Shown here: positions 29,494-55,138 of the stretch, one piece after another
Numbering within the stretch: the stretch's first letter is position 1
How the letters are laid out: each line of letters starts with the position of its first letter
DNA from: Escherichia coli
GTDB lineage: Bacteria; Pseudomonadota; Gammaproteobacteria; Enterobacterales; Enterobacteriaceae
DNA length: 64,000 nucleotides
NCBI RefSeq assembly: GCF_046105845.1
Contig: NZ_CP151004.1
Direction: 5' to 3' (one strand)
Made by a program: the position numbers and the translations under genes
Notes under the pieces: generated by a model
Told to the model about the DNA's origin: nothing
Seen by the model: only the letters and a program-made list of their open reading frames with translations
Databases searched by the model: none

Positions 29494-30114
29494 ATGACCT
29501 TAGAATGGTGGTTTGCCTACCTGCTGACATCGATCATTTTAAGCCTGTCGCCAGGCTCTGGCGCAATCAACACCATGACCACCTCGCTCAACCACGGTTA
29601 TCGCGGCGCGGTGGCGTCTATTGCTGGGCTTCAGACCGGACTGGCGATTCATATTGTGCTGGTTGGCGTGGGGTTGGGGACGCTATTTTCCCGCTCAGTG
29701 ATTGCGTTTGAAGTGTTGAAGTGGGCAGGCGCAGCTTACTTGATTTGGCTGGGAATACAGCAATGGCGCGCCGCTGGTGCAATTGACCTTAAATCGCTAG
29801 CCTCTACTCAATCGCGCCGACATTTGTTCCAGCGCGCAGTGTTTGTGAATCTTACCAATCCCAAAAGTATTGTGTTTCTGGCGGCGCTATTTCCGCAATT
29901 CATCATGCCGCAACAGCCGCAGCTGATGCAGTATATCGTGCTCGGCGTCACGACTATTGTGGTCGATATTATTGTGATGATCGGTTACGCCACCCTTGCT
30001 CAACGGATTGCTCTATGGATTAAAGGACCAAAGCAGATGAAGGCGCTGAATAAGATTTTCGGCTCGTTGTTTATGTTGGTGGGAGCGCTGTTAGCATCGG
30101 CGAGGCATGCGTGA
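29494..30114 (+). CDS. rhtB: homoserine/homoserine lactone efflux protein (LysE family)
   Basis: 206-aa membrane ORF recognised as RhtB. Confidence 0.93.
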
Positions 30115-30122
30115 AAAATAAT

Positions 30123-30152
30123 GTCGGATGCGGCGTAAACGCCTTATCCGAC
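30123..30152. repeat. REP element
   Basis: GTCGGATGCGGCGTAAACGCCTTATCCGAC, canonical REP palindrome between convergent rhtB and rhtC. Confidence 0.8.
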
Positions 30153-30175
30153 TTACTCTGATGACGCGTCTGGCA

Positions 30176-30796
30176 TCAACGCGAAATAATCAAATGAATG
30201 CCAAATCCGGCAAATAACGCCCCGGCAAAACCATCAATCCACTTCGCCAGACGTTGATAACCACGGCGCATTTGCGGCAGGGCAAACAGGCTGGCAACGA
30301 CGGTAAACCACGCCAGTGTTTCGATAATAATCAACGCGAAAATGCCCCAGCGCTCAGTGGTGCCGACGTTATCGCCGACAAACAGCGAGAATACCGAACC
30401 AAAGTAGATAATCGCTTTCGGATTGGCGAGATTGGTCAGTAAGCCTTTCAGGAAACTGCGCCCGCTTTTTGCCAGCTCAACCTGTGGTGCAGGCGCAGAA
30501 ACCGCCTCTTTTTTCAGTGCACCGCGTAGCATCTGGTAACCCATCCAGCAGAGATACAGGCCACCGCCCACCATAATCAGCGTATGCAGCCAGGCCATTT
30601 TTTCGATAATCAAATGTAGGCCAAGCAACGCAATCCCAGCCCAAACCATTACGCCGCAGGTAATGCCCAGCACGCCCATCATCGCTTCTTTACGGGAACG
30701 ACTGACAGCGGTCTGAGAGACAAAAAAGAAATCGGGACCGGGGCTCATAAGCGCCACAATGTGCACCATGGCGACGGTGAGGAATAACATCAACAT
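30176..30796 (-). CDS. rhtC: threonine efflux protein (LysE family)
   Basis: 206-aa membrane ORF recognised as RhtC. Confidence 0.93.
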   Translation of the reverse strand: MLMLFLTVAMVHIVALMSPGPDFFFVSQTAVSRSRKEAMMGVLGITCGVMVWAGIALLGLHLIIEKMAWLHTLIMVGGGLYLCWMGYQMLRGALKKEAVSAPAPQVELAKSGRSFLKGLLTNLANPKAIIYFGSVFSLFVGDNVGTTERWGIFALIIIETLAWFTVVASLFALPQMRRGYQRLAKWIDGFAGALFAGFGIHLIISR

Positions 30797-30859
30797 ACAT
30801 TAGACTCGCGGGGGAAACGTTTACGAAGTCTTCATCCTGGCACTTTTTTATGCTGCTGA

Positions 30860-32689
30860 CTACTCTTCGTCGTCACCATCGACATGCGCACGAATCAGCG
30901 CCATAAACGGTTTGCCAAAGCGTTCCAGCTTGCGCATACCAACGCCGTTAACGCTGAGCATTTCGCTGGCGGTGATCGGCATCTGTTCAGCCATCTCAAT
31001 CAAGGTCGCGTCGTTAAACACCACGTACGGCGGGACATTGCTTTCATCGGCAATCGATTTACGCAGTTTGCGTAATTTGGCGAACAGTTTGCGATCGTAG
31101 TTGCCGCCGAAGGATTTCTGCATCGCTTTCGGTTTGAGTGCCACGATACGTGGCACGGCAAGTTGCAAAGAGGATTCGCCGCGCAGCACCGGACGCGCAG
31201 CCTCTGTCAGTTGTAGGGCAGAATGCTGGGCAATATTTTGCGTCACCAGGCCGAGGTGAATCAGCTGGCGGATCACGCTCACCCAATGTTCATGGCTTTT
31301 ATCACGGCCCATGCCATAGACTTTCAGTTTGTCATGACCATAGTCGCGGATACGCTGGTTATTAGCGCCACGAATCACTTCCACCACATAACCCATCCCA
31401 AACCGCTGATTCACACGACCAATGGTGGAAAGGGCAATCTGAGCATCGGTTGAACCATCGTATTGTTTCGGCGGATCGAGGCAGATATCGCAGTTCCCGC
31501 ACGGCTCCTGCCGCCCTTCGCCAAAGTAGTTCAGCAGCACCAGACGACGGCAAGTTTGCGCTTCGGCAAACGCGCCCATCGCATTGAGTTTATGGCGCTC
31601 GATATCCTGCAATTGCCCCTGCGGCTTCTCTTCCAGACAACGGCGTAGCCACGCCATATCGGCCGGATCGTAAAACAGCATCGCTTCCGCGGGCAGGCCA
31701 TCACGCCCGGCGCGACCGGTTTCCTGATAATAGGATTCGATATTGCGCGGAATATCAAAATGCACCACGAAGCGAACGTTAGGCTTGTTGATGCCCATGC
31801 CGAACGCCACCGTCGCCACCACAATTTGCAGGTCATCGCGCTGGAATTTCTCCTGCACGTCGGCGCGAATATTATTTTCCAGCCCGGCATGATAGGCCGC
31901 CGCGCTAATTCCCTTGCTTTGCAGGCGCGCAGCGGTGTCTTCTACTTTCGCCCGGCTGTTGCAGTAAATAATCCCCGACTTACCGCGTTGTTCCTGCACG
32001 TAGCGCATCAACTGATCGAGCGGTTTGAATTTCTCCATCAGCATGTAGCGAATATTCGGACGGTCAAAACTGCTGATTTGAATCAGCGGATCGTTCAGCC
32101 CCAGCAGGCGCACGATATCCTGCCGCGTGGTGTCGTCGGCTGTGGCGGTCAGCGCCATAAACGGCAGCGTCGGGAACCGCTGGCGCAACTGACCGAGCGC
32201 GGCATATTCCGGGCGGAAATCGTGGCCCCATTGGGAGATACAGTGCGCTTCATCAACGGCTAATAACACCGGATTCCAGTGCGCCAGATGCTCAAGAAAG
32301 TTATCCAGCATCAGGCGTTCCGGGGCGATATAAAGCAGACGAATTTGCCCGGTGCGGCAGCCTGTCATCACTTCAAGTTGCTGTTCGCGGGTTTGCGTCG
32401 AGTTAAGGCACGCCGCCGCCACGCCGTTGGCTTGCAGTTGATCCACCTGATCTTTCATCAACGAAATCAGCGGTGAAACAACCACGGTAAGGCCGTTTAG
32501 CAATAAGGCAGGAATTTGATAGCAAAGGGATTTTCCGCCACCGGTGGGCATGACGACCAGGCAATCGCGACCGGAAAGCACAGTGTCGATAATTTCTTCC
32601 TGGCCGGGGCGAAACTGTTGGTAGCCAAAGGTTTCTTGTAAAACCTGTTTAGCTCCGGACTCCAGATTCAACACTTCCGCCTGCGCCAC
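30860..32689 (-). CDS. recQ: ATP-dependent DNA helicase RecQ
   Basis: Superfamily-2 helicase motifs (PTGGGKS, DEAH), zinc-binding and HRDC regions; start placed at the GTG giving [30 protein letters not shown]... (609 aa as in reference from memory). Confidence 0.92.
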
Positions 32690-32707
32690 ATTCACCCCGA
32701 TTGCCTG

Positions 32708-32738
32708 AAATAAAAACAGGCGCTATTTTCAGCGCCTG
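32708..32738 (-). terminator. putative rho-independent terminator downstream of pldA
   Basis: On the minus strand, hairpin CAGGCGCTGAAAATAGCGCCTG followed by TTTTTATTT; about 75 bp after the pldA stop. Confidence 0.45.
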
Positions 32739-32813
32739 CGCGAGAAACTGCAATGCTTTTAGTCTCTGAGAGGGTAATCCTGGATGCTGGATTCCAGATT
32801 TGACAACCATTCA

Positions 32814-33683
32814 TCAAAACAGGTCGTTTAGCATAACTCCCACACCAACGCGGGTCTGGTTGAAGTTATAGTCGATGAGCGATTCGCCGTAACCACTGTA
32901 AACCTGAGTATAAAGGCGCACATGTTTGGTGATCGGGTAACTTAAGCCTAACTCCGCACCACCGTAACCGGTGTTCCAGTTGTACTGCCCTTTCGCGCTC
33001 AGTACCGCATCACTGAGGTGATAGCCGATTTTAAGCTGGTAATAGCCCATATATTTGGTGATGTCCGGGTTATCGTCCGTATTCCCCACCACATACCACG
33101 GCTTCACCTCTACCAGCCAGTTACCGTTTTCTGCCATCAGGCGGGTATAAAGGCGGTTCCAGCTGCGGGAAGTCGGGTCTGAACGCCCGTTTGAGTCGTG
33201 GTTATAACCCATCTCCACATCGCGCAGCGTCCAACCTGCAAAACGGTAATCGGTGGCAAAACCGAGGAACAATTGCGGTTCGTAGTTGGTTTCACGAAAC
33301 GGTGAAGACTCTTCGCTATTGGACAGTTGCCACCAGGATTTTTGCGTATAAGACGCACCCAATACCGAGTTCGGGCCTAAAATCCCACGCCACAGCGGAA
33401 ATGCCAGGCTCAACTGAAACTTTACTTCATCCTTACGCGCATTTTCCGCCCAGTCGTAACTGGCAATCGCTTCTTTGTTCAGATCGCTGGTTTGGGTGTA
33501 GATGAGGTAGTTGGTGTCATAAGGATAGAGCGTGAACGGATTGTCATGCTCCTGCAGCATATTGGCGATAATACTGCCACGCACCGCAGGCGCGTCATGC
33601 ACCTCTTTCACCGTTGCCTCTTGTGCATATACTGCCATAGGCAACATAAACACCGGCAACAACCAGCCCTGCAGAGTCCGCAT
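32814..33683 (-). CDS. pldA: outer membrane phospholipase A
   Basis: 289-aa ORF with signal peptide, beta-barrel-type sequence ending ...NDLF, recognised as PldA (OMPLA). Confidence 0.94.
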   Translation of the reverse strand: MRTLQGWLLPVFMLPMAVYAQEATVKEVHDAPAVRGSIIANMLQEHDNPFTLYPYDTNYLIYTQTSDLNKEAIASYDWAENARKDEVKFQLSLAFPLWRGILGPNSVLGASYTQKSWWQLSNSEESSPFRETNYEPQLFLGFATDYRFAGWTLRDVEMGYNHDSNGRSDPTSRSWNRLYTRLMAENGNWLVEVKPWYVVGNTDDNPDITKYMGYYQLKIGYHLSDAVLSAKGQYNWNTGYGGAELGLSYPITKHVRLYTQVYSGYGESLIDYNFNQTRVGVGVMLNDLF

Positions 33684-33847
33684 CGGTCGTGTTCTCCGTA
33701 ACGAATTATTGATAAGGTGAATATTTTTCTGCGGGCTATTTTACATACTTAACTCCATAGCCGTTAGTTATCCCTTCCTAAAGTAGAAACCAACAACAAA
33801 GAAGCATAAAATCAACATTTCATTAACTAATGAAGTGTAAGGATGAT

Positions 33848-34315
33848 ATGTCTGCCGTACTGACCGCTGAACAAGCCCTGAAATTAGTGGGTGAGATGTT
33901 TGTTTATCACATGCCATTTAACCGCGCATTGGGGATGGAACTGGAGCGTTACGAAAAAGAGTTCGCACAGCTGGCCTTTAAAAATCAGCCAATGATGGTG
34001 GGTAACTGGGCGCAAAGCATTTTGCACGGCGGAGTCATTGCGTCGGCGCTGGATGTCGCCGCCGGTCTGGTGTGCGTGGGAAGTACCTTAACCCGCCACG
34101 AAACCATCAGTGAAGATGAACTACGCCAGCGGCTATCGCGGATGGGGACCATTGATCTTCGCGTTGATTATCTGCGCCCAGGCAGGGGCGAGCGTTTTAC
34201 TGCTACCAGTAGTCTGTTGCGGGCAGGCAATAAAGTCGCCGTCGCCCGCGTTGAATTACACAATGAAGAACAGCTTTATATTGCCAGCGCTACAGCCACC
34301 TATATGGTAGGTTGA
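33848..34315 (+). CDS. yigI: PaaI/4HBT-type acyl-CoA thioesterase YigI
   Basis: Translation [36 protein letters not shown]... (155 aa) recognised; start at internal Met of track ORF. Confidence 0.88.
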
Positions 34316-34366
34316 TAACGTAAAAGCAGGTAAACTGCTGTTACCAATTAAAAATGAGTATTCCCG

Positions 34367-35257
34367 ATGGATGCAAAACAAACGCGGCAGGGCGTATTAC
34401 TCGCTCTTGCCGCTTATTTTATTTGGGGTATTGCGCCAGCGTACTTCAAGCTGATTTACTACGTGCCCGCCGATGAGATCCTGACGCATCGCGTGATCTG
34501 GTCGTTTTTCTTTATGGTGGTGCTGATGAGCATTTGCCGCCAGTGGTCCTATTTAAAAACGCTGATTCAGACGCCACAGAAAATTTTTATGCTGGCAGTC
34601 TCTGCCGTGCTGATTGGTGGCAACTGGCTACTGTTTATCTGGGCGGTGAACAATCACCATATGCTGGAAGCGAGCCTTGGTTACTTTATTAACCCGCTGG
34701 TGAACATTGTGCTGGGGATGATTTTCCTCGGCGAGCGATTCCGCCGGATGCAATGGCTGGCGGTGATTCTGGCAATATGTGGCGTGTTGGTTCAGTTGTG
34801 GACTTTTGGTTCACTGCCGATTATCGCGCTGGGGCTGGCGTTTAGTTTTGCCTTCTACGGCCTGGTACGCAAGAAGATTGCTGTTGAAGCGCAAACCGGC
34901 ATGTTAATCGAAACTATGTGGTTGCTGCCCGTGGCGGCGATTTACCTGTTTGCTATTGCCGACAGCTCAACCAGCCATATGGGGCAAAACCCGATGTCAC
35001 TGAATTTACTGCTGATCGCCGCCGGGATTGTCACTACCGTACCGCTGTTGTGTTTTACTGCGGCTGCGACACGCCTGCGTCTCTCAACGTTAGGCTTTTT
35101 TCAGTACATTGGCCCGACGCTGATGTTCCTGCTGGCTGTGACGTTTTATGGTGAAAAACCGGGTGCCGATAAGATGGTGACCTTCGCCTTTATTTGGGTG
35201 GCGCTGGCAATTTTTGTGATGGATGCGATTTATACGCAGCGTAGAACGTCCAAATAA
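34367..35257 (+). CDS. rarD: DMT-family permease RarD
   Basis: 296-aa membrane ORF recognised as RarD. Confidence 0.92.
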   Translation: MDAKQTRQGVLLALAAYFIWGIAPAYFKLIYYVPADEILTHRVIWSFFFMVVLMSICRQWSYLKTLIQTPQKIFMLAVSAVLIGGNWLLFIWAVNNHHMLEASLGYFINPLVNIVLGMIFLGERFRRMQWLAVILAICGVLVQLWTFGSLPIIALGLAFSFAFYGLVRKKIAVEAQTGMLIETMWLLPVAAIYLFAIADSSTSHMGQNPMSLNLLLIAAGIVTTVPLLCFTAAATRLRLSTLGFFQYIGPTLMFLLAVTFYGEKPGADKMVTFAFIWVALAIFVMDAIYTQRRTSK

Positions 35258-35315
35258 AAAATAAATATATTCTGAAAAAATATGCCGACTCTTGCATGAG
35301 AGTGGGCATATTGCC

Positions 35316-35693
35316 ATGCTGACAGGAGACTCACATAAGAAAGGCAGAATTTCCAGACGTCGTTGTATATTTTCATTTGCTTTAATAAATTTCATTTTTG
35401 CCTTTCTTATTATCTTTTTTAACGATGGGGACGCAGGTTTTCTTGTTATTGTCTCTACCAACGCACTCCATTATCTCGTCATCAACATAAATTGCCAACG
35501 ACTCCGTGATAGTGGTTTCATATATATAAAAACTTATGTTTTTGGTACATTAGCAGTATATATCATCTCTATCATCACAATGATAGCCGAACATTTTGAT
35601 TGTTCAGGCAATGGTTCGATGATTTTTTTGATTTGTTATTTTTCCACTTTCAGTATGCTAATGCTTGCACCTACTGATTCATCAAAACAATAG
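35316..35693 (+). CDS. yigG: small inner membrane protein YigG
   Basis: AT-rich ORF encoding a hydrophobic protein ([35 protein letters not shown]...); first ATG used because the track start at 35292 is a TTG. Start uncertain. Confidence 0.65.
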
Positions 35694-35706
35694 TTATGGA
35701 GTATTT

Positions 35707-36087
35707 ATGAGTAAGGAATATATGAACGATGGTTCATTAAGTGAAAAATGGAAATACCGATTTAATTTTTATGATCAACATGGCTTTCCTGGATTCTGGG
35801 GGGCAACACCAGAATATAAAGCAGCATTTAAAACATTAAAAGTAAGACAACGATTAACTATTCAAATGAATTTCATTGCTTTCTTCTGTTCCTGGATCTA
35901 TTTATTTGTTCTGGGATTATGGAAAAAAGCAATTATAGTTCTATTACTTGGCATTCTATCTCTATTTGTTGGTGCACTAATTGGCGTTAACATTCTGGGA
36001 ATTGCCGTAGCAGCCTATGTTGCTGTTAACACGAACAAATGGTTTTATGAGAAAGAGGTAAAAGGGTTAAATACCTGGAGCCTTTGA
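35707..36087 (+). CDS. yigF: small inner membrane protein YigF
   Basis: ATG with GGAG ribosome-binding site about 11 nt upstream; 126-aa hydrophobic protein MSKEYMNDGSLSEKWKYRFNFYDQHGFPGFWG... recognised as YigF. Confidence 0.75.
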   Translation: MSKEYMNDGSLSEKWKYRFNFYDQHGFPGFWGATPEYKAAFKTLKVRQRLTIQMNFIAFFCSWIYLFVLGLWKKAIIVLLLGILSLFVGALIGVNILGIAVAAYVAVNTNKWFYEKEVKGLNTWSL

Positions 36088-36093
36088 ATAACA

Positions 36094-36129
36094 GGTGGCT
36101 TAGCCAGGCTAAGCCACCGCCTTCTTTTT
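36094..36129 (+). terminator. hairpin terminator between convergent yigF and corA
   Basis: Stem-loop GGTGGCTTAGCCAGGCTAAGCCACC followed by GCCTTCTTTTT on the + strand; overlaps the corA stop codon. Confidence 0.5.
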
Positions 36130-37078
36130 ACAGCCAGTTCTTGCGCTTAAAGTACAGATACGGTGCCAGGCCCGCGAGGATCATAAAGATAATCGCGCCA
36201 GGGTAGCCGAAACTCCACTTCAGTTCCGGCATAAACTCAAAGTTCATCCCGTAGCTGGAAGCAACCAGCGTTGGCGGCAGGAACACGACGGATACCACCG
36301 AGAAGATTTTGATGATGCGGTTCTGCTCGATGTTGATAAAGCCCATCGCCGCCTGCATCAGGAAGTTCACCTTCTGGAACAGAGATTCGTTATGCGGCAG
36401 CAGGGATTCGATATCTCGCAGGATTTCACGCGCCTGCTCCAGCTGCCCGCCCGGTAAACGCGCCTTACGCACCAGGAAGTTGAGCGCACGCTGGGTATCC
36501 ATCAGACACAGGCGAACTTTCCAGCCGATATCTTCCAGTTCCGCCAGCGTGGAGAGCGCCTCGTCGTACTCATCGCCCTGATGCCCTTCCATAATTACCC
36601 GGCTCAACTGCTCCAGGTCGCTGTAGATATTTTCAATTTCATCTGCCAACTGTTCGATTTTGGTTTCGAACAGATCCAGCAGCAGCTCGTAGGCGTTACC
36701 GTCCACCATTGACTGGCTACGGGCACGCATACGATACAGACGGAATGCAGGCAGTTCACGCTCACGCAGAGTAAACAGACGACCATCACGGATGGTAAAT
36801 GCCACAGTGGAGTTACCGGCGTGATCTTCCGCATCTTCAAAGAAGAAGAAGGAGTGAATATGCAGGCCGTCATCGTCTTCAAAGAAACGTGCCGATGCTT
36901 CGATGTCTTCCAGTTCCGGGCGGGTTGCCAGGCTCTGACCAAGTTCAGATTGTACGCGCAGTCGCTCGTCGTCGTCCGGTTCGACAAGATCAATCCATAC
37001 TGCATTTACAAGGGGTTGTGACTCTTCGACTTCCAGCCGGGTCAGTCGGTTATTTTCCAGTTGAAATGCGCTCAGCAT
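36128..37078 (-). CDS. corA: magnesium/cobalt/nickel transporter CorA
   Basis: Translation [31 protein letters not shown]... ending ...[40 protein letters not shown] (316 aa) recognised as CorA, including GMN motif. Confidence 0.94.
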
Positions 37079-37447
37079 GACCGGGACTCCCAATGCTTAA
37101 AATATCGGACAGTTCGGTGGGCACACAGAAACAAATTGGGTTTCAGACCATTAAACAGCCTGACTCAGCGCGACGGGAAAAATTGAGGTCGCTGACAACC
37201 GCTAAGGCTATCAGCAAAAAGGGATAGCCTTAGGAGTTGATCCTGGATGACAGGATAGTGAGCCAGTATCTACTGGGTGTGTCCAAGGCGAATGTCCTCT
37301 TAGAGTGATCGTGCGCGCATGTTACGCCAGCAAAATTTTGCCGTCAACACGCAACAGAACACCACAGAACAATAGTTGAACTTCGCGCTTTTTGGTACTC
37401 GTCAAGGTCGCTAACAGGATAAAAAAATCCCACATCCAGGACCTATA

Positions 37448-38212
37448 ATGGCGCATCGGCTACTCATTGGTAAAGGAATGATCACCTTGAATCTCAAACG
37501 GATTTTTCTCACCCTCACCTTACTTCCCTTATTTGCTGTTGCCGCTGATGATTGCGCACTCTCAGATCCGGCGCTGACCGTACAGGCGTATACCGTTAAT
37601 CCTCAAACAGAGCGGGTGAAAATGTACTGGCAAAAAGCCAATGGCGAAGCGTGGGGAACGTTACATGCTCTGCTGGCGGATATTAATAGTCAGGGTCAGG
37701 TGCAGATGGCAATGAACGGCGGCATCTATGATGAAAGCTATGCGCCGCTCGGTTTGTACATCGAAAACGGTCAGCAGAAGGTGGCGTTAAATCTCGCTTC
37801 AGGTGAAGGGAATTTCTTTATTCGTCCTGGCGGCGTGTTTTATGTCGCGGGAGATAAAGTCGGCATCGTTCGTCTGGATGCCTTTAAAACCAGTAAAGAG
37901 ATTCAGTTTGCGGTGCAGTCAGGGCCAATGTTATTAGAAAACGGCGTAATTAATCCGCGTATTCATCCCAACGTCGCCTCACGTAAAATTCGTAACGGTG
38001 TTGGGATTAATAAACAAGGGAACGCCGTGTTTTTGTTGAGCCAGCAGGCGACAAATTTTTATGATTTTGCCTGTTATGCCAAAGCGAAACTGAACGTTGA
38101 GCAGTTGCTTTATCTTGATGGCACAATTTCACATATTTATATGAAAGGCGGGGCAATCCCGTGGCAACGCTATCCTTTTGTCACCATGATTTCCGTCGAG
38201 CGGAAAGGTTAA
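37448..38212 (+). CDS. yigE: DUF2233-family (phosphodiester glycosidase-like) protein YigE, predicted exported
   Basis: 254-aa ORF divergent from corA, with signal-peptide-like N-terminus; recognised as YigE. Domain assignment from memory. Confidence 0.8.
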   Translation: MAHRLLIGKGMITLNLKRIFLTLTLLPLFAVAADDCALSDPALTVQAYTVNPQTERVKMYWQKANGEAWGTLHALLADINSQGQVQMAMNGGIYDESYAPLGLYIENGQQKVALNLASGEGNFFIRPGGVFYVAGDKVGIVRLDAFKTSKEIQFAVQSGPMLLENGVINPRIHPNVASRKIRNGVGINKQGNAVFLLSQQATNFYDFACYAKAKLNVEQLLYLDGTISHIYMKGGAIPWQRYPFVTMISVERKG

Positions 38213-38294
38213 GCATTATACACTCGAGGAGGCCAGACAAACTGGGACTGGCTACACAGCTGGAAAATCATCAGATAAATGAAGGGAAACAAAA

Positions 38295-39197
38295 ATGAAA
38301 AAAACGCTCGCAACGTTATTTTTATTAACGTGTCTGGGATCATCATCCGCCTATGCGGATAACGCTTTGATTTTACAAACTGATTTTAGCCTGAAAGATG
38401 GTGCCGTCTCGGCGATGAAAGGGGTCGCATTCGGCGTTGACCATAATCTTAAAATCTTTGATTTAACACACGAAATTCCACCGTATAACATCTGGGAAGG
38501 CGCTTATCGCCTGTATCAGACTGCCAGTTACTGGCCGCAAGGTTCGGTGTTTGTTAGCGTGGTCGATCCGGGCGTAGGCACTGACCGTAAATCGGTAGTG
38601 CTGAAAACCAAAAACGGTCAGTACTTCGTTTCACCAGATAACGGTACGCTCACTTTGGTGGCACAAACTCTGGGTATTGATAGCGTCCGGGAAATCGACG
38701 AAAAAGCTAACCGCCTGAAAGGTTCTGAAAAGTCATATACCTTCCACGGTCGTGACGTGTATGCCTACACCGGTGCGCGTCTGGCTTCCGGGGCGATTAC
38801 GTTCGAACAGGTGGGGCCAGAGCTTCCTGCAAAAGTTGTCGAACTTTCTTATCAGAAAGCAAAAGCAACAAAAGGTGAAGTGAAGGGCAATATCCCGATT
38901 CTCGATATTCAGTACGGCAACGTCTGGAGCAATATCAGCGACGAGTTGCTGAATCAGGCAGGAATCAAACTCAACGACACGTTGTGTGTGACCATTTCCG
39001 AAGGTTCCCAGCAAAAATACGCAGGGAAAATGCCGTATGTCGCAAGTTTCGGCGATGTGCCGGAAGGCCAGCCGATGGTGTATCTGAACAGCTTATTGAA
39101 TGTTTCCGTGGCGCTGAATATGGATAATTTCGCGCAGAAACATCAGGTTGCATCTGGTGCTGACTGGAATATTGATGTGAAGAAGTGCGCTAAGTAA
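38295..39197 (+). CDS. SAM hydroxide adenosyltransferase family protein (DUF62; fluorinase/chlorinase-like fold) with N-terminal signal peptide
   Basis: 300-aa ORF with GAAGGGA ribosome-binding site 8 nt upstream of ATG. Signal peptide MKKTLATLFLLTCLGSSSAYA|DN, then family motifs LILQTDFSLKDGAVSAMKGV and FHGRDVYAY. Not part of the K-12 gene order as I recall it. Confidence 0.75.
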   Translation: MKKTLATLFLLTCLGSSSAYADNALILQTDFSLKDGAVSAMKGVAFGVDHNLKIFDLTHEIPPYNIWEGAYRLYQTASYWPQGSVFVSVVDPGVGTDRKSVVLKTKNGQYFVSPDNGTLTLVAQTLGIDSVREIDEKANRLKGSEKSYTFHGRDVYAYTGARLASGAITFEQVGPELPAKVVELSYQKAKATKGEVKGNIPILDIQYGNVWSNISDELLNQAGIKLNDTLCVTISEGSQQKYAGKMPYVASFGDVPEGQPMVYLNSLLNVSVALNMDNFAQKHQVASGADWNIDVKKCAK

Positions 39198-39206
39198 GGG
39201 GCTGAT

Positions 39207-39237
39207 GCGGAATGCGGTGTGGCGCACCGCATTCCGC
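39207..39237. other. perfect 13-bp inverted repeat (stem-loop) between convergent DUF62 gene and uvrD
   Basis: GCGGAATGCGGTG-tggcg-CACCGCATTCCGC; no flanking T-run on either strand. Confidence 0.6.
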
Positions 39238-39241
39238 AACG

Positions 39242-41404
39242 TCACACCGTCTCCAACCGGGCGTAAGCCGCCACCAGCCATTTAATACCCTGGCCCTGGA
39301 ACGCCACCTGCAAACGGCTATGCTCACCGCTGCCTTCCATATTGACGATGGTGCCTTCACCAAACTTAGCGTGGCGTACGCGCTGGCCGAGCTTGTAGCT
39401 GCTGTCGTTCTCGACCATCGGCGTACCCATCCGTTGATGGCTGACCGGGCGGCTTACCGTGGCGCGCAGGCGCACCTCTTCCACACACTCTTCCGGCAGC
39501 TCGCCGATAAAGCGCGACGGGCGATGGTAAACCTCTTTGCCATACAAACGGCGAGTTTCCGCGTAGGTCAGCGTCAGTTTCTGCATCGCGCGGGTTACGC
39601 CAACGTAGGCCAGACGGCGTTCTTCTTCCAGACGTCCGCCTTCATCCAGCGACATCTGGCTTGGGAACATGCCTTCTTCCATACCAACGATAAACACCTG
39701 CGGGAACTCCAGCCCTTTCGCCGAGTGTAGCGTCATCAACTGCACCGCATCCTGCCAGGTATCCGCCTGCCCCTCGCCCGCTTCCAGTGCCGCATGGGAG
39801 AGGAACGCCTGCAGCGGCATTAAATCTTCGTCTTCTTCGTTGTAGCTGAACTGGCGCGTCGCCGTCACCAGTTCCTCTAAGTTTTCGATACGCGTCTGTC
39901 CTTTTTCGCCCTTCTCCTGCTCGTACATGGTGCGCAGGCCGGAGTCTTTAATGACCCGGTCAGTCTGTACATGCAGCGGCATATCGGCAGTTTCCTGCGC
40001 TAAGGCGTCGATCAGTTCCATAAACCGTTGCAAGGCACTGGCAGCACGTCCGGCGAGGGCTTTTTCCTGCAACAGTTCACGACATGCCTGCCAGAGTGTT
40101 AACTGACGATCGCGCGATGTCTGACGTACCACGTCCAGCGTCCGGTCACCAATACCCCGCGTTGGCGTATTCACCACGCGCTCAAAGGCCGCGTCGTCGT
40201 TGCGGTTGGCAATCAGGCGCAGATATGAGAGCGCGTCTTTGATTTCCTGACGTTCGAAGAAGCGCATCCCGCCGTAAATACGGTACGGCATACTCGCCTG
40301 CAACAGTGCTTCTTCCAGCACGCGCGACTGGGCGTTGCTGCGGTAGAGAATGGCGCACTCGGCGAGCGCCCCGCCGTTGTCCTGCCAGGTCTTGATACGG
40401 TTAACCACAAAACGCGCTTCGTCGAGTTCGTTAAAAGCGCAATAGAGGGAAATCGGCTCACCGTCCGCGCCATCGGTCCACAGTTTTTTACCCAGACGCC
40501 CGTTGTTGTTTTCAATCAGGGCGTTAGCGGCGCTCAGAATATTGCTGGTAGAGCGGTAGTTTTGCTCCAGACGAATAGTTTCGGCACCGGGGAAATCATT
40601 AAGGAAACGCTGAATATTCTCCACCTGCGCCCCGCGCCAGCCGTAGATTGACTGGTCGTCATCGCCAACGATCATCACTTTGCCGGTGTCGCCCGCCAGC
40701 AGGCGGATCCACGCGTACTGAATGTTGTTGGTATCCTGGAATTCGTCCACCAGGATGTTAGTAAAACGTTCGCGGTAGTGTTGCAGGATATGCGGCTTGT
40801 TAAGCCACAACTCGTGAGCACGTAGCAGCAGCTCGGCGAAGTCCACCAGGCCCGCGCGGTCACACGCTTCCTGATACGCCTGATACACCTTCTGCCAGGT
40901 CTGCTCCACCGGATTACCGTAGCTTTGAATATGATGTGGACGCAGGCCTTCATCTTTCTGGCTGTTGATGTACCACATTGCCTGGCGCGGCGGCCACTGC
41001 TTCTCGTCGAGGTTCATCGCCTTGATTAGGCGTTTGAGCAGGCGTAGCTGGTCCTCGCTGTCGAGGATCTGAAAATCCTGCGGCAGATTGGCGTCCATAT
41101 GGTGCGCACGCAGCAGACGGTGCGCCAGCCCGTGGAAGGTGCCGACCCACATGCCGCCCTGGCTGGTGCCCATCAGCTGCCCGATACGATGACGCATCTC
41201 CGCCGCCGCTTTGTTGGTAAACGTTACCGCCATAATCGAGTATGGCGAGCAGTTTTCCACGCTCATCAGCCAGGCGATACGATGCACCAATACGCGCGTC
41301 TTACCACTGCCCGCGCCCGCCAGCACCAGAAGGTTGCTGCGTGGCGCGGCCACCGCTTCGCGCTGTTTGTCATTAAGGCTGTCGAGCAGGTAAGAAACGT
41401 CCAT
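39242..41404 (-). CDS. uvrD: DNA helicase II (UvrD)
   Basis: Translation from MDVSYLLDSLNDKQREAVAAPRSNLLVLAGAGSGKTRVLVHRIAWL... (720 aa) recognised as UvrD; track ORF is over-extended upstream by 62 codons. Confidence 0.94.
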   Translation of the reverse strand: MDVSYLLDSLNDKQREAVAAPRSNLLVLAGAGSGKTRVLVHRIAWLMSVENCSPYSIMAVTFTNKAAAEMRHRIGQLMGTSQGGMWVGTFHGLAHRLLRAHHMDANLPQDFQILDSEDQLRLLKRLIKAMNLDEKQWPPRQAMWYINSQKDEGLRPHHIQSYGNPVEQTWQKVYQAYQEACDRAGLVDFAELLLRAHELWLNKPHILQHYRERFTNILVDEFQDTNNIQYAWIRLLAGDTGKVMIVGDDDQSIYGWRGAQVENIQRFLNDFPGAETIRLEQNYRSTSNILSAANALIENNNGRLGKKLWTDGADGEPISLYCAFNELDEARFVVNRIKTWQDNGGALAECAILYRSNAQSRVLEEALLQASMPYRIYGGMRFFERQEIKDALSYLRLIANRNDDAAFERVVNTPTRGIGDRTLDVVRQTSRDRQLTLWQACRELLQEKALAGRAASALQRFMELIDALAQETADMPLHVQTDRVIKDSGLRTMYEQEKGEKGQTRIENLEELVTATRQFSYNEEDEDLMPLQAFLSHAALEAGEGQADTWQDAVQLMTLHSAKGLEFPQVFIVGMEEGMFPSQMSLDEGGRLEEERRLAYVGVTRAMQKLTLTYAETRRLYGKEVYHRPSRFIGELPEECVEEVRLRATVSRPVSHQRMGTPMVENDSSYKLGQRVRHAKFGEGTIVNMEGSGEHSRLQVAFQGQGIKWLVAAYARLETV

Positions 41405-41462
41405 TGGCACCGCCGCGTAAAAATAGGTTGGGCGGAGAAGCGCAACGCCCTCCGCCAAAAAG

Positions 41463-41478
41463 CTGGGTATATATACAG
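41463..41478 (-). promoter_or_regulatory. LexA (SOS) box in uvrD promoter
   Basis: Reverse complement CTGTATATATACCCAG matches the CTGT-N8-ACAG LexA consensus; about 60 bp upstream of the uvrD start, just downstream of the yigB stop. Confidence 0.65.
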
Positions 41479-41487
41479 ATTTGCTGA

Positions 41488-42204
41488 TTATATCAGCGAG
41501 GTCAGAGATGCCAACCGGGAAATTTCCAGATGCGGGAGTAAACGGCTGTCCCAGGTTTGCATCAGATCGCCATTTTCCGGTCTGATCCAACAGGCCTGCA
41601 TTCCGCTGCGAATTGCCCCACCCACGTCAGTGGTGAGATCATCCCCGACATGTAAGATCTCGCCGATCGGCACGTTGAGTTTTTCCGCCGCCAGGAAGTA
41701 CATATCGCTGAACGGTTTTGAGCGCCCGTGCGGGCCAGCACGCAGCACAAACTCAAAATAATCCCCCAAACCAAACAGTTCCGGCTGGGCGTTACCGTTG
41801 GTGATCGCCACCAGCGGCCATTTCTTCGCCAGCTGTTTTAAGGTGTCGTGGGTTTGCTGCGGGACATCGATTCGGCTGCGCCATTTGGCAAAGTTGATCA
41901 TTGCTGCGTGTGCGCCTGCACTGGCTTCTTCGGCACTCAGCCCGGCGTCGAGCATGGCTTGTTCAATCGAACGAAAACGCCAGCGCGTCACGTCGTGATA
42001 AATCTCGGGTTCCGCTTCCCGTACCGCCTGGCGCAGGCGTTGCAGATCTTCATTCTGGAAGCTGCGCAGCGCCGGATGATAATTTTGCACAAAGGTAAGC
42101 GCCTCTCGCTCGGTGCGCAAAATCACCGGACGGTTATCGTAAAGGGTATCATCCAGGTCAAAGGTGAGCGCCGAGATGCGCCTCAAAGGCCGGTAAAAAC
42201 GCAT
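41488..42204 (-). CDS. yigB: HAD-family phosphatase YigB (5-amino-6-(5-phospho-D-ribitylamino)uracil phosphatase)
   Basis: 238-aa ORF with HAD motifs (DLDDTL near N-terminus) recognised as YigB. Confidence 0.9.
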
Positions 42205-43100
42205 TATTTCCCCCGTTTGGCGCGTGGATGCGCCGCATCGTACACCGAGGCAAGGTGTTGAAAATCAAGATGAGTATAGATTTGCGTGGTGGAGAGGTTG
42301 GCATGACCCAGCAGCTCCTGCACACCACGAAGTTCGCCGCTCGACTCCAGCATATGCGTAGCGAACGAGTGACGTAATTTATGCGGGTGAACGTGATTAT
42401 TCAGCCCTTGTTTGATGCCCCATTCGGCAAAGCGTTTCTGCACATTACGCGCGGAGATACGCTTGCCCAGTTTCGACAGAAAAAGCGCGTCGTCTTCGCT
42501 ACCAAACAGGTCGCGCAAATCAAGCCAGTGCTCAATCCACGCCACAGCGTTGCGACCAATCGGCAGGCGGCGCTCTTTGCTGCCTTTTCCCATCACCCAC
42601 ACTTCACCAGACTCCAGGTCGAGGTGTTTGATATCGAGCCCCACCAGTTCGGAAAGACGCAGACCCGCGCCGTACATCACTTCCAGCATTGCCCGATCGC
42701 GCACGGCGAGGGGATCGTTGATATCAATATCCAGCAGCCGATTCATATCATCGACGTCGATGTTTTTCGGCAGATGACGCGGCGCTTTCGGTGCCGAAAC
42801 ACCTTTCGCCGGGTTGGCTTTGAGTTCGTTCTGGCTGACCAGCCAGTCAAAAAAGCTACGTAGCGCAGAAAGCCGTAACGCCAGACTTGCAGCTCCCAGC
42901 CCTTTACGGCGACTGCGTACAGCGAAATTGCGCACCATCGTCACATCACATTGCTGCCAGCTTTGCAGGCCGTTTTCACTGGCAAAATTGATGATCGCCT
43001 CAAGCTGACGCTGATAGTTAAGCAGGGTTATCGGGCTAAGCTGACGCTCCACGCTCAGATAACGTAGGTAGCGTTCTACATCGGTGTGTAAATCGGTCAT
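42204..43100 (-). CDS. xerC: tyrosine site-specific recombinase XerC (chromosome dimer resolution)
   Basis: 298-aa ORF with tyrosine recombinase motifs (...[40 protein letters not shown]...) recognised as XerC; conserved dapF-yigA-xerC-yigB context. Confidence 0.94.
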
Positions 43101-43804
43101 ACGCGTTCAATCCAACGCTCCAGAAGCTCCGGCAACATCAGCGCAATTTCATGAAGTAACTGCGTTCCCTGCCCTTGTTGATAGTGACTGGCATCGCGAC
43201 TAGTAAACAGCACAACACCCAAATCAGCATCGCTTCCCAGCATCGACATCGCCACCGATCCCACCGCTTTCGCTTCCGGTAGCACCACCAGAAGCTCCGG
43301 TCCGTTAAGCGGCCCCAGATAGTGCTGTTCCTGCCCCAGACGCTGAATACGCAGCGGTTCGAAAGACTGACGGCTTAATGCCAGATAAGTGTGGTTCGAC
43401 GGCGCACCTAAGCGCCAGCGATCCGGAAACAGGCGCAGACTCGCACCTGCCAGCCCTAAATCACGCGCCCAGCGATGGAAACGCATCAGCATATCGTCGA
43501 GACTACTGGCGGCGGTGAGACTGCGCTGCAGGTAGAGTAGACGATAAAACAGGCCTTCGTTGGCGATTGCCTGTTCCATCAACAGCGCCATGTTCTCTTC
43601 CAGAACATGAATATGATTACGTGCGCGGGCCATGTGCCACTCGACCAACGAAACGGTGCCGCGTACCGGATGCGGCACACGTATCGCTTCTACTGCGCGC
43701 GCATTGCGGATAAAAAACTCAGGATTTTTAATCAGATAATCGACAACCGCCCGGTCATCAAGCTCCGTGAGTGTTTCCTGCAGTTCTTCCCCTGGTTGCT
43801 TCAT
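43097..43804 (-). CDS. yigA: DUF484-family protein YigA
   Basis: 235-aa ORF recognised as YigA; overlaps dapF stop and xerC start (operon). Confidence 0.9.
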
Positions 43805-44625
43805 AGATGAATAAATCCGTCGTAGACATGTACCGCCGGGCCAGTCATATATAACGGGTGACCCGGACCTTTCCAGGCGATATCAAGACGACCGCCAGGG
43901 AGTTCCACGCGTACTTCTTCGGCCAGCAAACCTTGCTGAATCCCTACCGCCACCGCCGCACACGCGCCGCTGCCGCAGGCCTGGGTTTCTCCTGCCCCAC
44001 GCTCATAAACGCGTAAACGAATATGCTCGCGCTTAACCACTTGCATAAAACCGATATTGGCGCGCTCCGGAAAACGCTCGTGGCTTTCCAGAACAGGACC
44101 AAGCGTTTCTACCGCCGCGGTATCGACATCATCGACCTGAATCACGCAATGCGGATTTCCCATCGACACCACGCCGCATAAGATTGTCTGCTCGGCGGCG
44201 CGCATAATATAGGTCTTTTCCGCTTTGTTAGCGCGAAACGGCACGGCGGAAGGTTCGAAGTTGGGCTCGCCCATGTTTACGCGAACCAGATCATCATCGG
44301 TGACGGTCAGAACCATCCGCCCGTTGGCGGTGCTGACGCGGATATCGCGCTTATTGGTCAGCCCTTTCAGGCGCACAAAACGGGCAAAGCAGCGTGCGCC
44401 GTTGCCGCACTGCGCCACTTCACTGCCATCAGCATTGAAAATGCGATAGTGAAAATCCAGTTCAGGATCATACGGTGGCTCAACCACCAGCAGTTGGTCA
44501 AACCCTACCCCCAGGTGCCGATCCGCCAGGCGACGAATCAGCTCCGGTGAAAAAAAGACATTCTGCGTTACCGCGTCGACGACCATAAAATCGTTGCCAA
44601 GGCCATGCATTTTCGAGAACTGCAT
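43801..44625 (-). CDS. dapF: diaminopimelate epimerase
   Basis: Translation [46 protein letters not shown]... (274 aa) recognised as DapF. Confidence 0.94.
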
Positions 44626-44661
44626 CATTTACTCCAATCACGCGGGTACAGAAACTGACTT

Positions 44662-44865
44662 TTAGTAATTCACCTGGGATGGACCATCGCCAGTGGCGCG
44701 GTCGTTTTTATCCGGCACTGTGGATTGCGTTTGCGTCTCTACCGATTTGGTCGGCGGCGGTGCGTTTTTATCTGCAGGCGGGAAATAGAGCGGACCTTTC
44801 AGACCGCAGCCCGTCAGGCTGAAGAGAGTAAGTAATACAGTGAGTGCCTTAAACACGTTTTTCAT
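44662..44865 (-). CDS. yifL: small lipoprotein YifL
   Basis: 67-aa ORF with lipoprotein signal (LTLFSLTGC lipobox) recognised as YifL. Confidence 0.85.
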   Translation of the reverse strand: MKNVFKALTVLLTLFSLTGCGLKGPLYFPPADKNAPPPTKSVETQTQSTVPDKNDRATGDGPSQVNY

Positions 44866-45053
44866 TATGGATTGCCTGTAAAGTTCATCGCTTTCTGCTT
44901 TCTATCATCGCAGGAGAAGGCGTAAAAGCAAGCGTTTAGCGACTCTTTATGAAGTCTGAAAAATGAGGAAATACTGCGAGTATAACGCTTACACGTGGCG
45001 ATTTATGTTTTGCTGGTAGTTTCGTGATCGTCACCTCGCGCCAGGATGGCTTT

Positions 45054-45287
45054 ATGCACTATCGCAATGTGATTTCTTTGTTGGCTTGTTCGTTGTTTTT
45101 ATCGTCGGCATGGGGATGTCGGCTTGATGAGCCTGAACATAATATTTACCAGAAACAGGGAAAAGGCGTGGTGTATTTGCACCCTTATGAAAAGACCAAT
45201 CTTTCGCTATATAGAGACATTATTATTCCGTTGACAGATGAATCATGCCGGAACGCAGCCGCAGAGGTGCAAACTTTGAAGCCCTGA
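45054..45287 (+). CDS. hypothetical small exported/lipoprotein-like protein (possibly the reference yzcX)
   Basis: 77-codon ORF with AGGA ribosome-binding site about 8 nt upstream of ATG; N-terminus MHYRNVISLLACSLFLSSAWGC resembles a signal/lipoprotein peptide. Real-gene status unverified. Confidence 0.35.
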   Translation: MHYRNVISLLACSLFLSSAWGCRLDEPEHNIYQKQGKGVVYLHPYEKTNLSLYRDIIIPLTDESCRNAAAEVQTLKP

Positions 45288-45334
45288 CCCCATGCCGCTA
45301 TACTGCCGCCATCACTTAAAAACAGGATACAACA

Positions 45335-45655
45335 ATGAACGACAGTGAATTTCATCGCCTGGCTGATCAACTCTGGCTGACCATTGAAGAGCGTCTGGAC
45401 GACTGGGATGGCGATAGCGATATCGACTGCGAAATCAACGGCGGTGTACTGACCATTACCTTTGAGAACGGTAGCAAAATCATTATCAACCGTCAGGAAC
45501 CGCTGCACCAGGTGTGGCTGGCAACCAAACAGGGCGGCTACCATTTTGATATGAAAGGCGATGAGTGGATTTGCGATCGTAGCGGCGAAACCTTCTGGGA
45601 TTTGCTGGAACAGGCGGCAACGCAGCAAGCGGGTGAAACAGTCAGTTTCCGCTAA
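45335..45655 (+). CDS. cyaY: frataxin homologue CyaY
   Basis: 106-aa [59 protein letters not shown]... recognised as CyaY. Confidence 0.94.
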
Positions 45656-45694
45656 TATTACATGCCGGATAAGCTTCGCTTTCCGGCACGCTCA

Positions 45695-48241
45695 TCACGA
45701 AAAATACTGCTGTAATAGCGGCGTATCGTGATCCTGATTGGCAGGCGGCATGTTGCCAATCGATTTGGTGCGGAACGGAATCACCTGTTCACGACCATCA
45801 ACCTTCACAATCTGATAGAACTGCGGCAGGTTGAAGTTGATGAAGCTTGAGCCGTAGGTAAAACGGTCGTGCGATGACGAGTAGAAGCGACTGACGTCAC
45901 GCACCAGCTCCTCTTTGCTGCCTTCGCAGTGGTGATACACCTCAACCCGGTTGCTTTCGTCGAGAATGTAGATATTAAAGCCATTCTCGTCTTGCGTTTC
46001 TTCGAAGAAGAACTGGATGATCCCTTCGCTGGCAAAGCCGTCCACCACCGCCGGTAATTTGACGTGATTGGTTTCAACCTGCACTGACAGGCCGTGCAGT
46101 TTGTTATGCGAAATAGCGCCATAAAACTCGATGGCATTTTCTAGTTTCTGTACCGATACATTCAGGCGCTCGAAGAATAAGCCCCAGGTTTGACCAGAAA
46201 CGCGCAGCGCCTTGAAGCGCCCGGTTTCATGGCGGGTGCTGGAAAGACGCAGTTCAATGCACTCAGAAACCAGTTGCTGCACGCGAGTACGGATTAATCC
46301 GCGCAGATGCTGGCTGTAGCAGAAGACTTCCACGCTATCTGGCGGTGCGGCGTCCTGATGCATTTTACCGAGAATGGTTTTCAGGGCTTCGATCATCGAC
46401 TGCTCGCCGTTGAAGTGCAACGTACGCACTTCGTTCCACGAGTTGCGGTACAGCAGGTCCACGCTACCTACCAGGCAATTTTGATTCTCGCCAAAGCTGA
46501 AGACGTCCAGCTTACGGAAATCAAAATGCACCACCTGATTGCGGAACGCAGCTGTCGGGTCATATTCCAGGTTAACGATAATCGCCAGATGGCGAATTTC
46601 ACACGGGCTGTAGAGCGCTTTTGGCGTCGGTGCAGGCAGGCGCAGCGGGAAATGGTGTGACACATCGGCGACCATCTCCTGCAACTTAGGCAAATCGACA
46701 ATGCCGTTGCCTTTAATATACAAGCGGGTACGCGAGGTCAGCAGGCCGTTAAACCATGCCCACGCCACCAGTTTATTCAGGTAACGGTTATATTCCAGCG
46801 GCTGATGGCTGATGATCGACTCAATATTTGGCGCGCGGTTATACAGATACCAACCTGAACGGTTAGCCCGGCCCGGCGGCACATAAATAAAGGTCAGATT
46901 CGGTTCCGAGAGATCGGGTGAAATCTGCGGGTTTACCAGCGTCACTTTACCCGGCAATGCTTCAAACGCGGCATACAGCTTACGCGTCAGCACGCCGATA
47001 TCCTGCGGACTGGCGGAGACGCTAAGGTTATTGCGGCGCGCAAAGCGAATCAGATTACGGTAGCTCTGCATCATCGCGTCGAGCAACTCGTTGTGCGCCT
47101 CACGTACCTGATCAATCTTCCAGTTAGCGCGGTTATCGAGCATTGCCAGACGAGCATCGTCCCATTCCCACTCTTTCACTAACTGGGTTAGCACTTCACG
47201 ACGCCAGCCTACGCAGGCGCGTTCACGGCTGAGTTTTTCGCACACTTTTAAATAGAAGCAGCGGCGTACTAAATCCAGACGGGTGAAATCTTCAATCGCC
47301 GTCAGGTATTCAGTAACACGCTCCAGCATCATGCAGTAAGGATCGAGGCCAAACGACACAATCTCGCCGTCGTGCAAACGCTGTTTGATATCTTTCGCCA
47401 GCAGACGTGGGTTCGGGTATTCCCAGGAATAGGCTTCCAGCAGCAGTGTTTTCAGCACCGCTTTGTATGGGGAATCGATACTCTTGTAGAGCTGCCAAAG
47501 GCTGGCACCAAAGTACTCTTCAGCAGAAAGCGAGCTTAAGCCACCGAGATCCAGCCATTCATTTGGCGTCAGCACGCCCTGCGCGTAAAGCGTCATCACA
47601 TAGTCGTCGTAATGCTCTTCTTCGTCGCACGGCACCATATTCCACAGAATACGCTTACCAGCGAGACGCACGGCGGTACGGTAAAATTCGTCAAGCAGCA
47701 GTATATGCTGGGTGGAGCCACAATCTTCGCCCCCCAGGCTGCCGCTTTCATTATGACGGAAGCGGTTTTCATCAATCAGGAAGAAGCTAACTTCCACGCC
47801 CAGCGAGGCGGCCCAGCTTTCCAGCAGGCTGCATTTACGTTGTAGTAACTGGCGCTCTTCGCTATCAAGCCAGGATTGATGACAGACCCAGATATCCAGG
47901 TCAGAGGAACAACTTTGCCCTACGGACGAGGTGCTGCCCATGGTGTATACACCAGTAATTGGAAGCTCACCTTTCGGCGGATCCTGTACTGACATTCCAC
48001 GATACAGTTCAAGCTCGTTCAGGTAGTGGCGTTGAGTTTCATCAGGCGTGTAAAGGCAAATGCCTTTGGGAACGTTACCATCAAGGTAACCCGGCATTAG
48101 CGGATGGTGATAGTGCAACAATGTCGGCAGTAGACTGTAGACCTGTTGGAATGCAGGCCCCATAGCAGCAAGCGCGCGATCCACACGCAATTGATTTATG
48201 GCATCCAGTCTCTGTTTCAGAGTCTCAATATAGAGGTACAA
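45695..48241 (-). CDS. cyaA: adenylate cyclase (class I)
   Basis: 848-aa ORF recognised as CyaA; initiation codon at 48239-48241 is TTG on the coding strand, as known for E. coli cyaA. Confidence 0.94.
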
Positions 48242-55126: not shown

Positions 55127-55138
55127 AATCAACCGCAG

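Follow-up and report, generated by a model that had tools for sequence, protein, structure and literature searches.

The window analyzed here is the whole stretch of Escherichia coli DNA under study, 64 kb in length, in which the gene for a SAM hydroxide adenosyltransferase (the DUF62 gene, with the SAM_HAT_N and SAM_HAT_C domains; 38295-39197, + strand, TAA stop codon) converges on uvrD, the gene for DNA helicase II (39242-41404, - strand, TGA stop codon at 39242-39244), with yigE and corA lying further to the left of the DUF62 gene. The 3′ end of the DUF62 gene faces a hairpin. According to the original prediction, these two convergent genes are separated by a perfect palindrome at 39207-39237 with a 13-bp stem and a 5-nt loop, and direct reading of the window, which gives GCGGAATGCGGTG-TGGCG-CACCGCATTCCGC, showed this to be exact, with the addition that an extra outermost pair, T39206-A39238, extends the perfect stem to 14 bp (39206-39219 and 39225-39238). 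All 14 pairs of the window hairpin are of the Watson-Crick type, and a stem mismatch is absent. The left arm (TGCGGAATGCGGTG, 39206-39219), the loop (TGGCG, 39220-39224) and the right arm (CACCGCATTCCGCA, 39225-39238) are preceded by a spacer of 8 nt from the DUF62 stop codon to the stem (39198-39205, + strand), which contains the conserved REP-flanking CTGA, and followed by a spacer of 3 nt from the stem to the uvrD stop codon (39239-39241, - strand), and the uvrD mRNA would carry the hairpin 3 nt past its stop codon. The G at 39200 in the former spacer is a single-nucleotide polymorphism private to the window, T being present in every other copy read.

The window contains no perfect hairpin longer than this one. 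The chance expectation per window, for loops of 3-8 nt, was 0.006 perfect 13-bp stems and 0.0015 perfect 14-bp stems (approximately 0.001-0.006), and in 30 dinucleotide shuffles the longest stem was mostly 8-10 bp, a stem of 13 bp being present in 1 shuffle. The folding energy calculation, which had been suggested as a check, indicated a stable structure in both orientations, with -32.5 kcal/mol (z -4.5) for the + strand and -31.2 kcal/mol (z -4.1) for the - strand of the 66-nt region, and with approximately -28 kcal/mol in the core of the G+C-rich hairpin. An Rfam scan of 38000-40500 with E values up to 10 returned only chance microRNA and snoRNA matches, which were far under the gathering scores, and the hairpin is, therefore, not assigned to any known RNA family.

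The DUF62 gene is present at this site in 2412 of the 5426 complete E. coli genomes. The segment that is missing from K-12-like genomes, consisting of the yigE-DUF62 spacer and the DUF62 ORF, extends approximately from 38213 to 39190 (+ strand), the boundary being approximate because it is based on short alignments, and its right edge lies about 16 nt to the left of the hairpin. The distribution of the DUF62/SAM_HAT gene is patchy: among the best 80 loci, close relatives were found in Escherichia only, the next ones were in Aeromonas (about 72-76% at the amino acid level), Edwardsiella, Thorsellia and Pasteurellaceae, and none was in other Enterobacteriaceae. A contig labelled Helicobacter pylori SA213A carries an 88%-identical DUF62 copy in an AT-rich context without a REP, which could represent horizontal transfer or contamination. 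For the part of the window at 30000-48000, the top match among the 5426 complete E. coli genomes was 98.5% over 18 kb and none reached 99%; therefore, the window comes from a lineage, in E. coli or adjacent to it, that has been poorly sampled. Another inverted repeat, with 17-nt arms that are 88% complementary, is located at 37196-37239 between corA and yigE, near the small ORF ysgD. An RNA 3′ end has been mapped inside its K-12 homologue at 4,001,272 (PMC7815308 supplementary file 1) and, therefore, this repeat is probably in the corA leader.

The origin of the hairpin became apparent from the comparison with the homologous spacers of other Escherichia genomes. The yigE-uvrD spacer of K-12 contains REP1 (GATGCCGGATGCGGCG-TAAA-CGCCCTATCCGGCCTAC), a linker of approximately 40 nt, and an inverted REP2 (TAGGCCAAATAAGGTG-CGCAG-CACCGCATCCGGCAACG), which is followed directly by the uvrD stop codon, and the same arrangement of REP1, linker and inverted REP2 is present between yigE and uvrD in CRE10, WP5-W18, EC42405 and Combat11I9. 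The two outer arms of this REP pair (BIME) could be aligned to the two arms of the window hairpin. In this alignment, the left arm and the adjoining CTGAT are homologous to the 5′ "head" arm of the ancestral REP1 (GATGCCGGATGCGGCG), the T at position 12 of this arm having come from the inner arm of REP2. The homologue of the right arm and the adjoining CAACG is the other arm of the inverted REP2, its outer "head" arm (CACCGCATCCGGCA), which abuts the uvrD stop codon in K-12. The flanks, CTGAT... on the left and ...CAACGTTA on the right, are common to both forms. The similarity to REPs was demonstrated by this direct reading and alignment; a search with a strict 37-nt REP consensus, allowing 3 mismatches and a fixed 5-nt loop, was too rigid, missing even the genuine REPs of the window, and the K-12 reference record, which has no repeat features annotated over 49 kb, was uninformative with respect to REP annotation.

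A comparison of the uvrD 3′ flank between genomes with and without the DUF62 gene had been proposed, under which the same palindrome in genomes lacking the gene would make it simply the uvrD 3′ structure. The outcome was divided: both arms are indeed present downstream of uvrD in the DUF62-lacking genomes, located approximately 95 nt apart as the outer arms of the BIME, but the contiguous palindrome was seen in DUF62-carrying E. coli only. This collapsed form was found in all of the 30 evenly sampled DUF62-carrying complete E. coli genomes, with a span of 161 or 171 nt. A full BIME between the DUF62 stop codon and uvrD was found in E. coli SCPM-O-B-8794 (L005) and Escherichia sp. MOD1-EC7003 (L006), which are the most divergent in the set, with identities to the window of 90-94.5% in yigE, DUF62 and uvrD, compared with 96-99% for E. 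coli proper. Because these most divergent lineages carry both elements, the ancestral state was the DUF62 gene with a full BIME, in the order, as shown by comparison, of DUF62 stop codon, REP1, linker, inverted REP2 and uvrD stop codon. In K-12-like genomes, the DUF62 gene was lost and the BIME was kept, and in window-like genomes, the DUF62 gene was kept and the BIME collapsed. Thus, the suggestion that the palindrome could be REP-like was borne out by the alignment to the BIMEs of K-12, L005 and L006, although in the form of descent, the hairpin being, on this comparison, the collapsed remnant of a REP pair downstream of uvrD.

The same alignments bear on another suggestion of the original prediction, that the variable segment might have its junction marked by the palindrome. 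It could, for instance, be a recombination or attachment site at the edge of the gained or lost DUF62 segment. The megablast match of the DUF62-lacking genomes resumes inside the hairpin (query 320-325), which is within approximately 16 nt of the right edge of the segment, and REPs are known as hot spots for recombination and IS insertion, in agreement with such a role. However, the spacers of the DUF62-lacking genomes can be aligned to the DUF62-carrying flank from approximately 39190 rightwards, so that an alignment of the left arm with its flank (CTAAGTAAGG..GCTGATGC) is possible even where the DUF62 gene is absent, and the alignments place the hairpin in shared sequence, approximately 16 nt outside the boundary of the DUF62 indel. 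The break inside the hairpin is explained by the interior of the BIME and not by the DUF62 indel. Furthermore, the full BIME exists both with the DUF62 gene (L005 and L006) and without it (K-12), and no matching repeat is present where the segment begins on the left, directly behind the yigE stop codon. The junction proposal was, therefore, not upheld, and we regard it as most unlikely.

Two other kinds of variation were observed at this site. A third architecture is present in the DUF62-lacking strains EA2 (L003, 2400-2500) and Eco_24-2013 (L100), in which REP1 is followed by a different short linker and the outer arm of REP2 is lost, the inverted REP2 ending after its loop; this site, therefore, seems to be a hot spot for REP-associated rearrangement. 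In addition, a segment of approximately 10 nt (GAGTTGTAAAT, ATAATCGTAAAT or TGATCGTAAAT) separates the uvrD stop codon from the hairpin or REP2 in some genomes (for example, at 2826-2846 of L004, 3945-3960 of L005 and 2480-2500 of L003) and is absent from others, and it shifts the stem from 3 nt to 13 nt off the uvrD stop codon. It was found both with and without the DUF62 gene, and next to full BIMEs as well as collapsed hairpins; this scattering implies either repeated indels or recombination over a distance of a few tens of bases.

With respect to the mechanism of the collapse, the hairpin could have been formed by a deletion between imperfect direct repeats, namely GCCGGATGCGGCG, the 5′ arm of REP1, and GCCGGATAAGGTG, the inner one of the two arms of the inverted REP2. 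A crossover after the GC/AA site would have removed the 3′ half of REP1, the linker and both GTAG/CTAC feet, with a product in which a chimeric left arm (GCCGGATGCGGTG) is placed opposite the REP2 outer arm (CACCGCATCCGGC). Because both of the remaining arms are "head" arms, they would pair perfectly, with the usual stem mismatch of REPs gone. The founder predicted from this model, GCCGGATGCGGTG-TGGCG-CACCGCATCCGGC, was found exactly in strain XJ34, and deletions by REP-REP recombination have been documented experimentally (PMC4872102). The loop is at variance with the model, since the collapsed copies have loops of the TGGCG type (with small variants in L087 and L089), whereas all full BIMEs seen have CGCAG, so that 3 of the 5 positions differ. 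A search for a full BIME with a TGGCG loop found none, the best matches being DUF62-lacking genomes with a CGCAG loop at 95.4% identity. Therefore, for a single deletion to account for the collapse, additional changes or an ancestor outside the sample have to be assumed. Inversion of the loop, which would give CTGCG, was considered as the source of TGGCG and was rejected because it does not account for the difference.

We then compared the hairpin with the defining features of REPs. The E. coli REP has been described by Ton-Hoang et al. as an extragenic imperfect palindrome of 30-40 nt with a GTAG foot and a two-base mismatch in the stem, and TnpA_REP requires both the foot and the stem mismatch, a perfectly palindromic REP mutant being neither bound nor cut (PMC3333891). 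The hairpin is in agreement with this description in that it is an extragenic palindromic stem-loop of 33 nt (39206-39238) between two stop codons. However, no GTAG/CTAC foot is present on either strand (the flanks being GGGGCTGA and ACGTCACA on the two sides of the stem); where a full BIME is present, CTAC and GTAG are located on the linker side of the REPs, and they disappeared together with the linker. Neither the two-base mismatch nor the GC/TTA asymmetry that is seen in the REPs at 11143-11176 and 55097-55127 of the window is present, and only one hairpin is left at a site where K-12, L005 and L006 have the complete REP-linker-inverted REP. Therefore, with the foot and the mismatch gone, the hairpin is predicted to be no longer a substrate of TnpA_REP.

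In terms of the y-type classification (Gilson, Bachellier and Ton-Hoang nomenclature), the hairpin shares with REPs and BIMEs its location as the positional homologue of the BIME after uvrD in K-12 and other Escherichia, its arms derived from head arms, its extragenic and G+C-rich nature, its length of approximately 33 nt and its position between convergent genes, and it differs in being a single-copy, perfect head-arm palindrome without the foot, the two-base mismatch, the linker and the partner REP. The reading of the homologous sites thus classifies the window hairpin as a descendant of a BIME and not as a canonical REP or BIME. That it might still be an active REP, recognized by TnpA_REP, gyrase or IHF and mobile or recombining like other REPs, could be argued from its size, composition and extragenic location and from the closeness of its arm to the head of y-type REPs (GATGCCGGATGCGG), to which 10 of the 13 positions are matched in the window arms and 12 of the 13 in the founder XJ34. 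Nevertheless, the two features required for binding and cleavage are both missing, and the linker has been deleted together with any IHF site that it might possibly have contained, IHF sites being typical of BIME-1 L linkers (PMC3333891). The sequence is, moreover, single-copy (median of 1 place per genome), and no second head-arm/head-arm palindrome was found in the 113 kb examined. Retention of REP activity is, thus, very improbable.

Genuine REPs were observed elsewhere in the window. A canonical BIME is present at 11143-11240, consisting of a y-type REP (GCCGGATGCGGCGTGAACGCCTTATCCGGTCTAC, 11143-11176), a 16-nt linker, an inverted z1-type REP (GTAGGCCTGATAAGACGCGCCAGCGTCGCATCAGGCA) and a partial REP head, and a lone y-type REP without the CTAC foot is present at 55097-55127. 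Located 11 nt past the latter is a classic intrinsic-terminator hairpin with a T-run, GCGGCCA-CAAAA-TGGCCGC-TTTTTT, at 55139-55163.

To characterize the hairpin in the population, 17 collapsed copies were read, 13 from complete genomes and 4 from metagenomes, the latter being all the loci obtained by a metagenome scan anchored on the DUF62 3′ end, which were used for variants only as they are too few for a census. The perfect 14-bp stem was present in 5 copies (the window, XJ34, THO-008, A8 and AS19); the loop-closing pair was lost in 2 (FDAARGOS_536, which is L089, and L087), one internal mismatch or wobble was present in 7 (L002, L090, L091, L085, L094, L095 and L097), and two mismatches were present in 3 (L004, L086 and L088). 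At least 12 of the 14 pairs were thus kept in every one of the 17 copies. The loop was identical in 15 of them, L089 and L087 being different at or beside it, and the inner 8 pairs were invariant except for the loop-closing pair in these two, the changes clustering in the old CCGG core. Position 3 of the stem was C-G in XJ34, C.C in O157:H7, O145 and L085, G-C in THO-008, A8, Z1323 and the window, C.T in EC200461, and A-T in AS19; position 5 was G-C, A.C in Z1323, strain 104 and Z0117 (which corresponds to G.U on the uvrD mRNA strand), or A-T in the window. The shortest path to the window allele involves G to C in the right arm, C to G in the left arm, G to A in the left arm and C to T in the right arm, which represent two rounds of disruption and repair and end in GCGGAAT/ATTCCGC. 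Thus, the haplotype series is consistent with positions 3 and 5 having been altered on one side and then on the other.

In an analysis of covariation with 9 distinct haplotypes, 96% of the cells were paired, 2 pairs were changed on both sides, and only 2 of 500 column shuffles reached the observed score, although the sample is small, the haplotypes were chosen by identity class within one species, and relatedness inflates statistics of this type. The covariation signal at positions 3 and 5 is, accordingly, suggestive only. The symmetry may have been held by selection on pairing or by hairpin-templated correction, in which template switching during replication turns quasipalindromes into perfect ones (PMC7202029, PMC5941160). 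In this respect, the stem resembles the quasipalindrome hot spots for template switching (Ripley 1982; the thyA and lacZ QP reporters of the Lovett lab) in having a short inverted repeat with a small loop and in that, after one arm has acquired a mismatch, the matching change arises in the opposite arm and the palindrome becomes perfect again, and it is different in that the series comes from a natural population and not from a reporter assay.

As to the role of the hairpin, the original prediction had stated that it is not a canonical intrinsic terminator, and this was corroborated. An intrinsic terminator should have a U-rich tract of 7-8 nt after a G+C-rich stem; the stem is present here, but a T-run is absent on both strands, the first 10 nt after the stem being ACGTCACACC (+) and TCAGCCCCTT (-), and the terminator scan gave no match at this site. 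A bidirectional, Rho-independent terminator might be supposed from the strength of the stem and its location between convergent genes, but because no U-tract follows it, and because the termination past uvrD at the K-12 homologue is sensitive to bicyclomycin (PMC7815308), such a function is scarcely conceivable.

In the 100 nt downstream of the hairpin, there are 42 C and 20 G on the + strand, and 32 C and 16 G on the - strand. Such a C-rich, G-poor composition is typical of Rho utilisation sites. In K-12, a 3′ end of uvrD-sense RNA is located at 4,000,258/9, with the distal REP stem (4,000,222-252) ending 7 nt before it, and the bicyclomycin-sensitive region of Rho termination peaks at 4,000,389, with a Rho score of 3.5 and a p of 3e-10 (PMC7815308 supplementary files 1 and 2). 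As a general rule, the 3′ ends of Rho-dependent transcripts are located at stem-loops without a U-tract, which act as a block to PNPase and RNase II (PMC6061677), and the window allele shows the sequence features of such a 3′ stem-loop, namely a stable stem, no U-tract and an excess of C over G downstream. The 3′-end role is carried over from the BIME of K-12, where the mapped end follows the distal REP and not a collapsed hairpin. In the window, there is no stable structure other than the collapsed hairpin between the DUF62 and uvrD stop codons, and the hairpin is, therefore, predicted to take this role for both mRNAs.

The likeliest role is, therefore, by analogy with K-12, that of an RNA 3′-end hairpin shared by the convergent uvrD and DUF62 mRNAs in both directions. 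From the K-12 homologue and the literature on REPs, the hairpin, transcribed both ways, would form the stable 3′-terminal structure of the two mRNAs: Rho would end transcription further downstream, in the C-rich, G-poor antisense sequence, and 3′-5′ exonucleases would trim the transcripts back to the hairpin, which would shield both messages. The stabilization of both convergent mRNAs, which was among the functions originally suggested, is the best supported by this analogy, in view of the K-12 3′ end lying 7 nt past the REP. The hairpin may also slow terminating ribosomes, since it is located 3 and 8 nt from the stop codons, which is inside the range of less than 16 nt in which REPs have been reported to lower translation (Liang 2015, as summarised in PMC12306157). 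According to a recent preprint, REPs are found in about 30% of convergent intergenic regions, and those between convergent genes are associated with higher expression of both, in favor of such a role; the absence of a uniform effect of REPs on mRNA half-life, found in the same work, speaks against it (bioRxiv 10.64898/2026.03.23.713779).

Compared with the U-less 3′-terminal stem-loops of Rho-dependent transcripts (Dar and Sorek 2018), the hairpin is alike in being a stable stem-loop right after a coding region, with C-rich, G-poor sequence next to it, and in having a K-12 homologue with a mapped 3′ end and a downstream Rho region. It is different in that one hairpin would serve two convergent genes and in that it is located near enough to both stop codons to meet the terminating ribosome.

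It could alternatively be supposed that the hairpin is a neutral fossil, left over from the deletion of the BIME without any function of its own, in which symmetry was restored by template switching and not by selection. The mismatched haplotypes, with 1-2 mismatches, appear to be common, including O157:H7 and O145 (C.C), strain 104 and Z0117 (A.C) and the EC200461 type (two mismatches), whose exact sequence was found in three sources, and perfect pairing is, therefore, clearly not required; template switching can perfect inverted repeats without selection, and K-12-like genomes cope with a different structure and EA2-like ones with a truncated REP2. On the other hand, the retention of most pairs in all of the collapsed copies and the near invariance of the inner 8 pairs argue against a structure free to decay, and so do the coincidence of the homologous K-12 element with a mapped RNA 3′ end and the generality of U-less stable hairpins at the ends of Rho-terminated genes. 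We consider a mere fossil to be rather unlikely. This explanation concerns the origin and maintenance of the hairpin and is compatible with an incidental 3′-end role.

Taken together, we consider it likely that the palindrome is a hairpin derived from a BIME by a single-deletion collapse, with later symmetric changes in the stem, a bidirectional role at the 3′ ends of the two mRNAs, and recognition by TnpA_REP lost. A more general possibility, which we put forward only tentatively and consider less likely than not, is that BIME collapse represents a general route to retire a REP pair, in which the perfect palindrome escapes TnpA_REP and keeps the bidirectional 3′-end role, with its symmetry actively kept. 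If this were the case, there would be at least three double pair-restoring changes in one species, two at position 3 and one at position 5, with mismatched intermediates segregating, and this locus would document, in a natural and datable form, either selection on a 3′ hairpin common to two genes or template-switch correction in the wild.

The feature described here is tidy but ordinary, being a derivative of a very well known type of element. Its practical value is mostly for annotation: a striking palindrome located beside a variable gene proves to be a REP pair that has decayed and not a new signal or an insertion scar, and the breakpoint that seems to lie within the hairpin results from aligning across the interior of the BIME. 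What remains most curious is the series of changes that restored pairing in a single species. With about 2400 E. coli genomes carrying one 14-bp stem in at least 8 pairing states and with a recognisable founder, this locus represents a small natural experiment. It could be used to examine whether the loss of the foot and the mismatch removes a REP from the reach of the transposase and to ask whether it is selection for pairing or simply template switching that maintains the symmetry of 3′-end hairpins shared by convergent genes.
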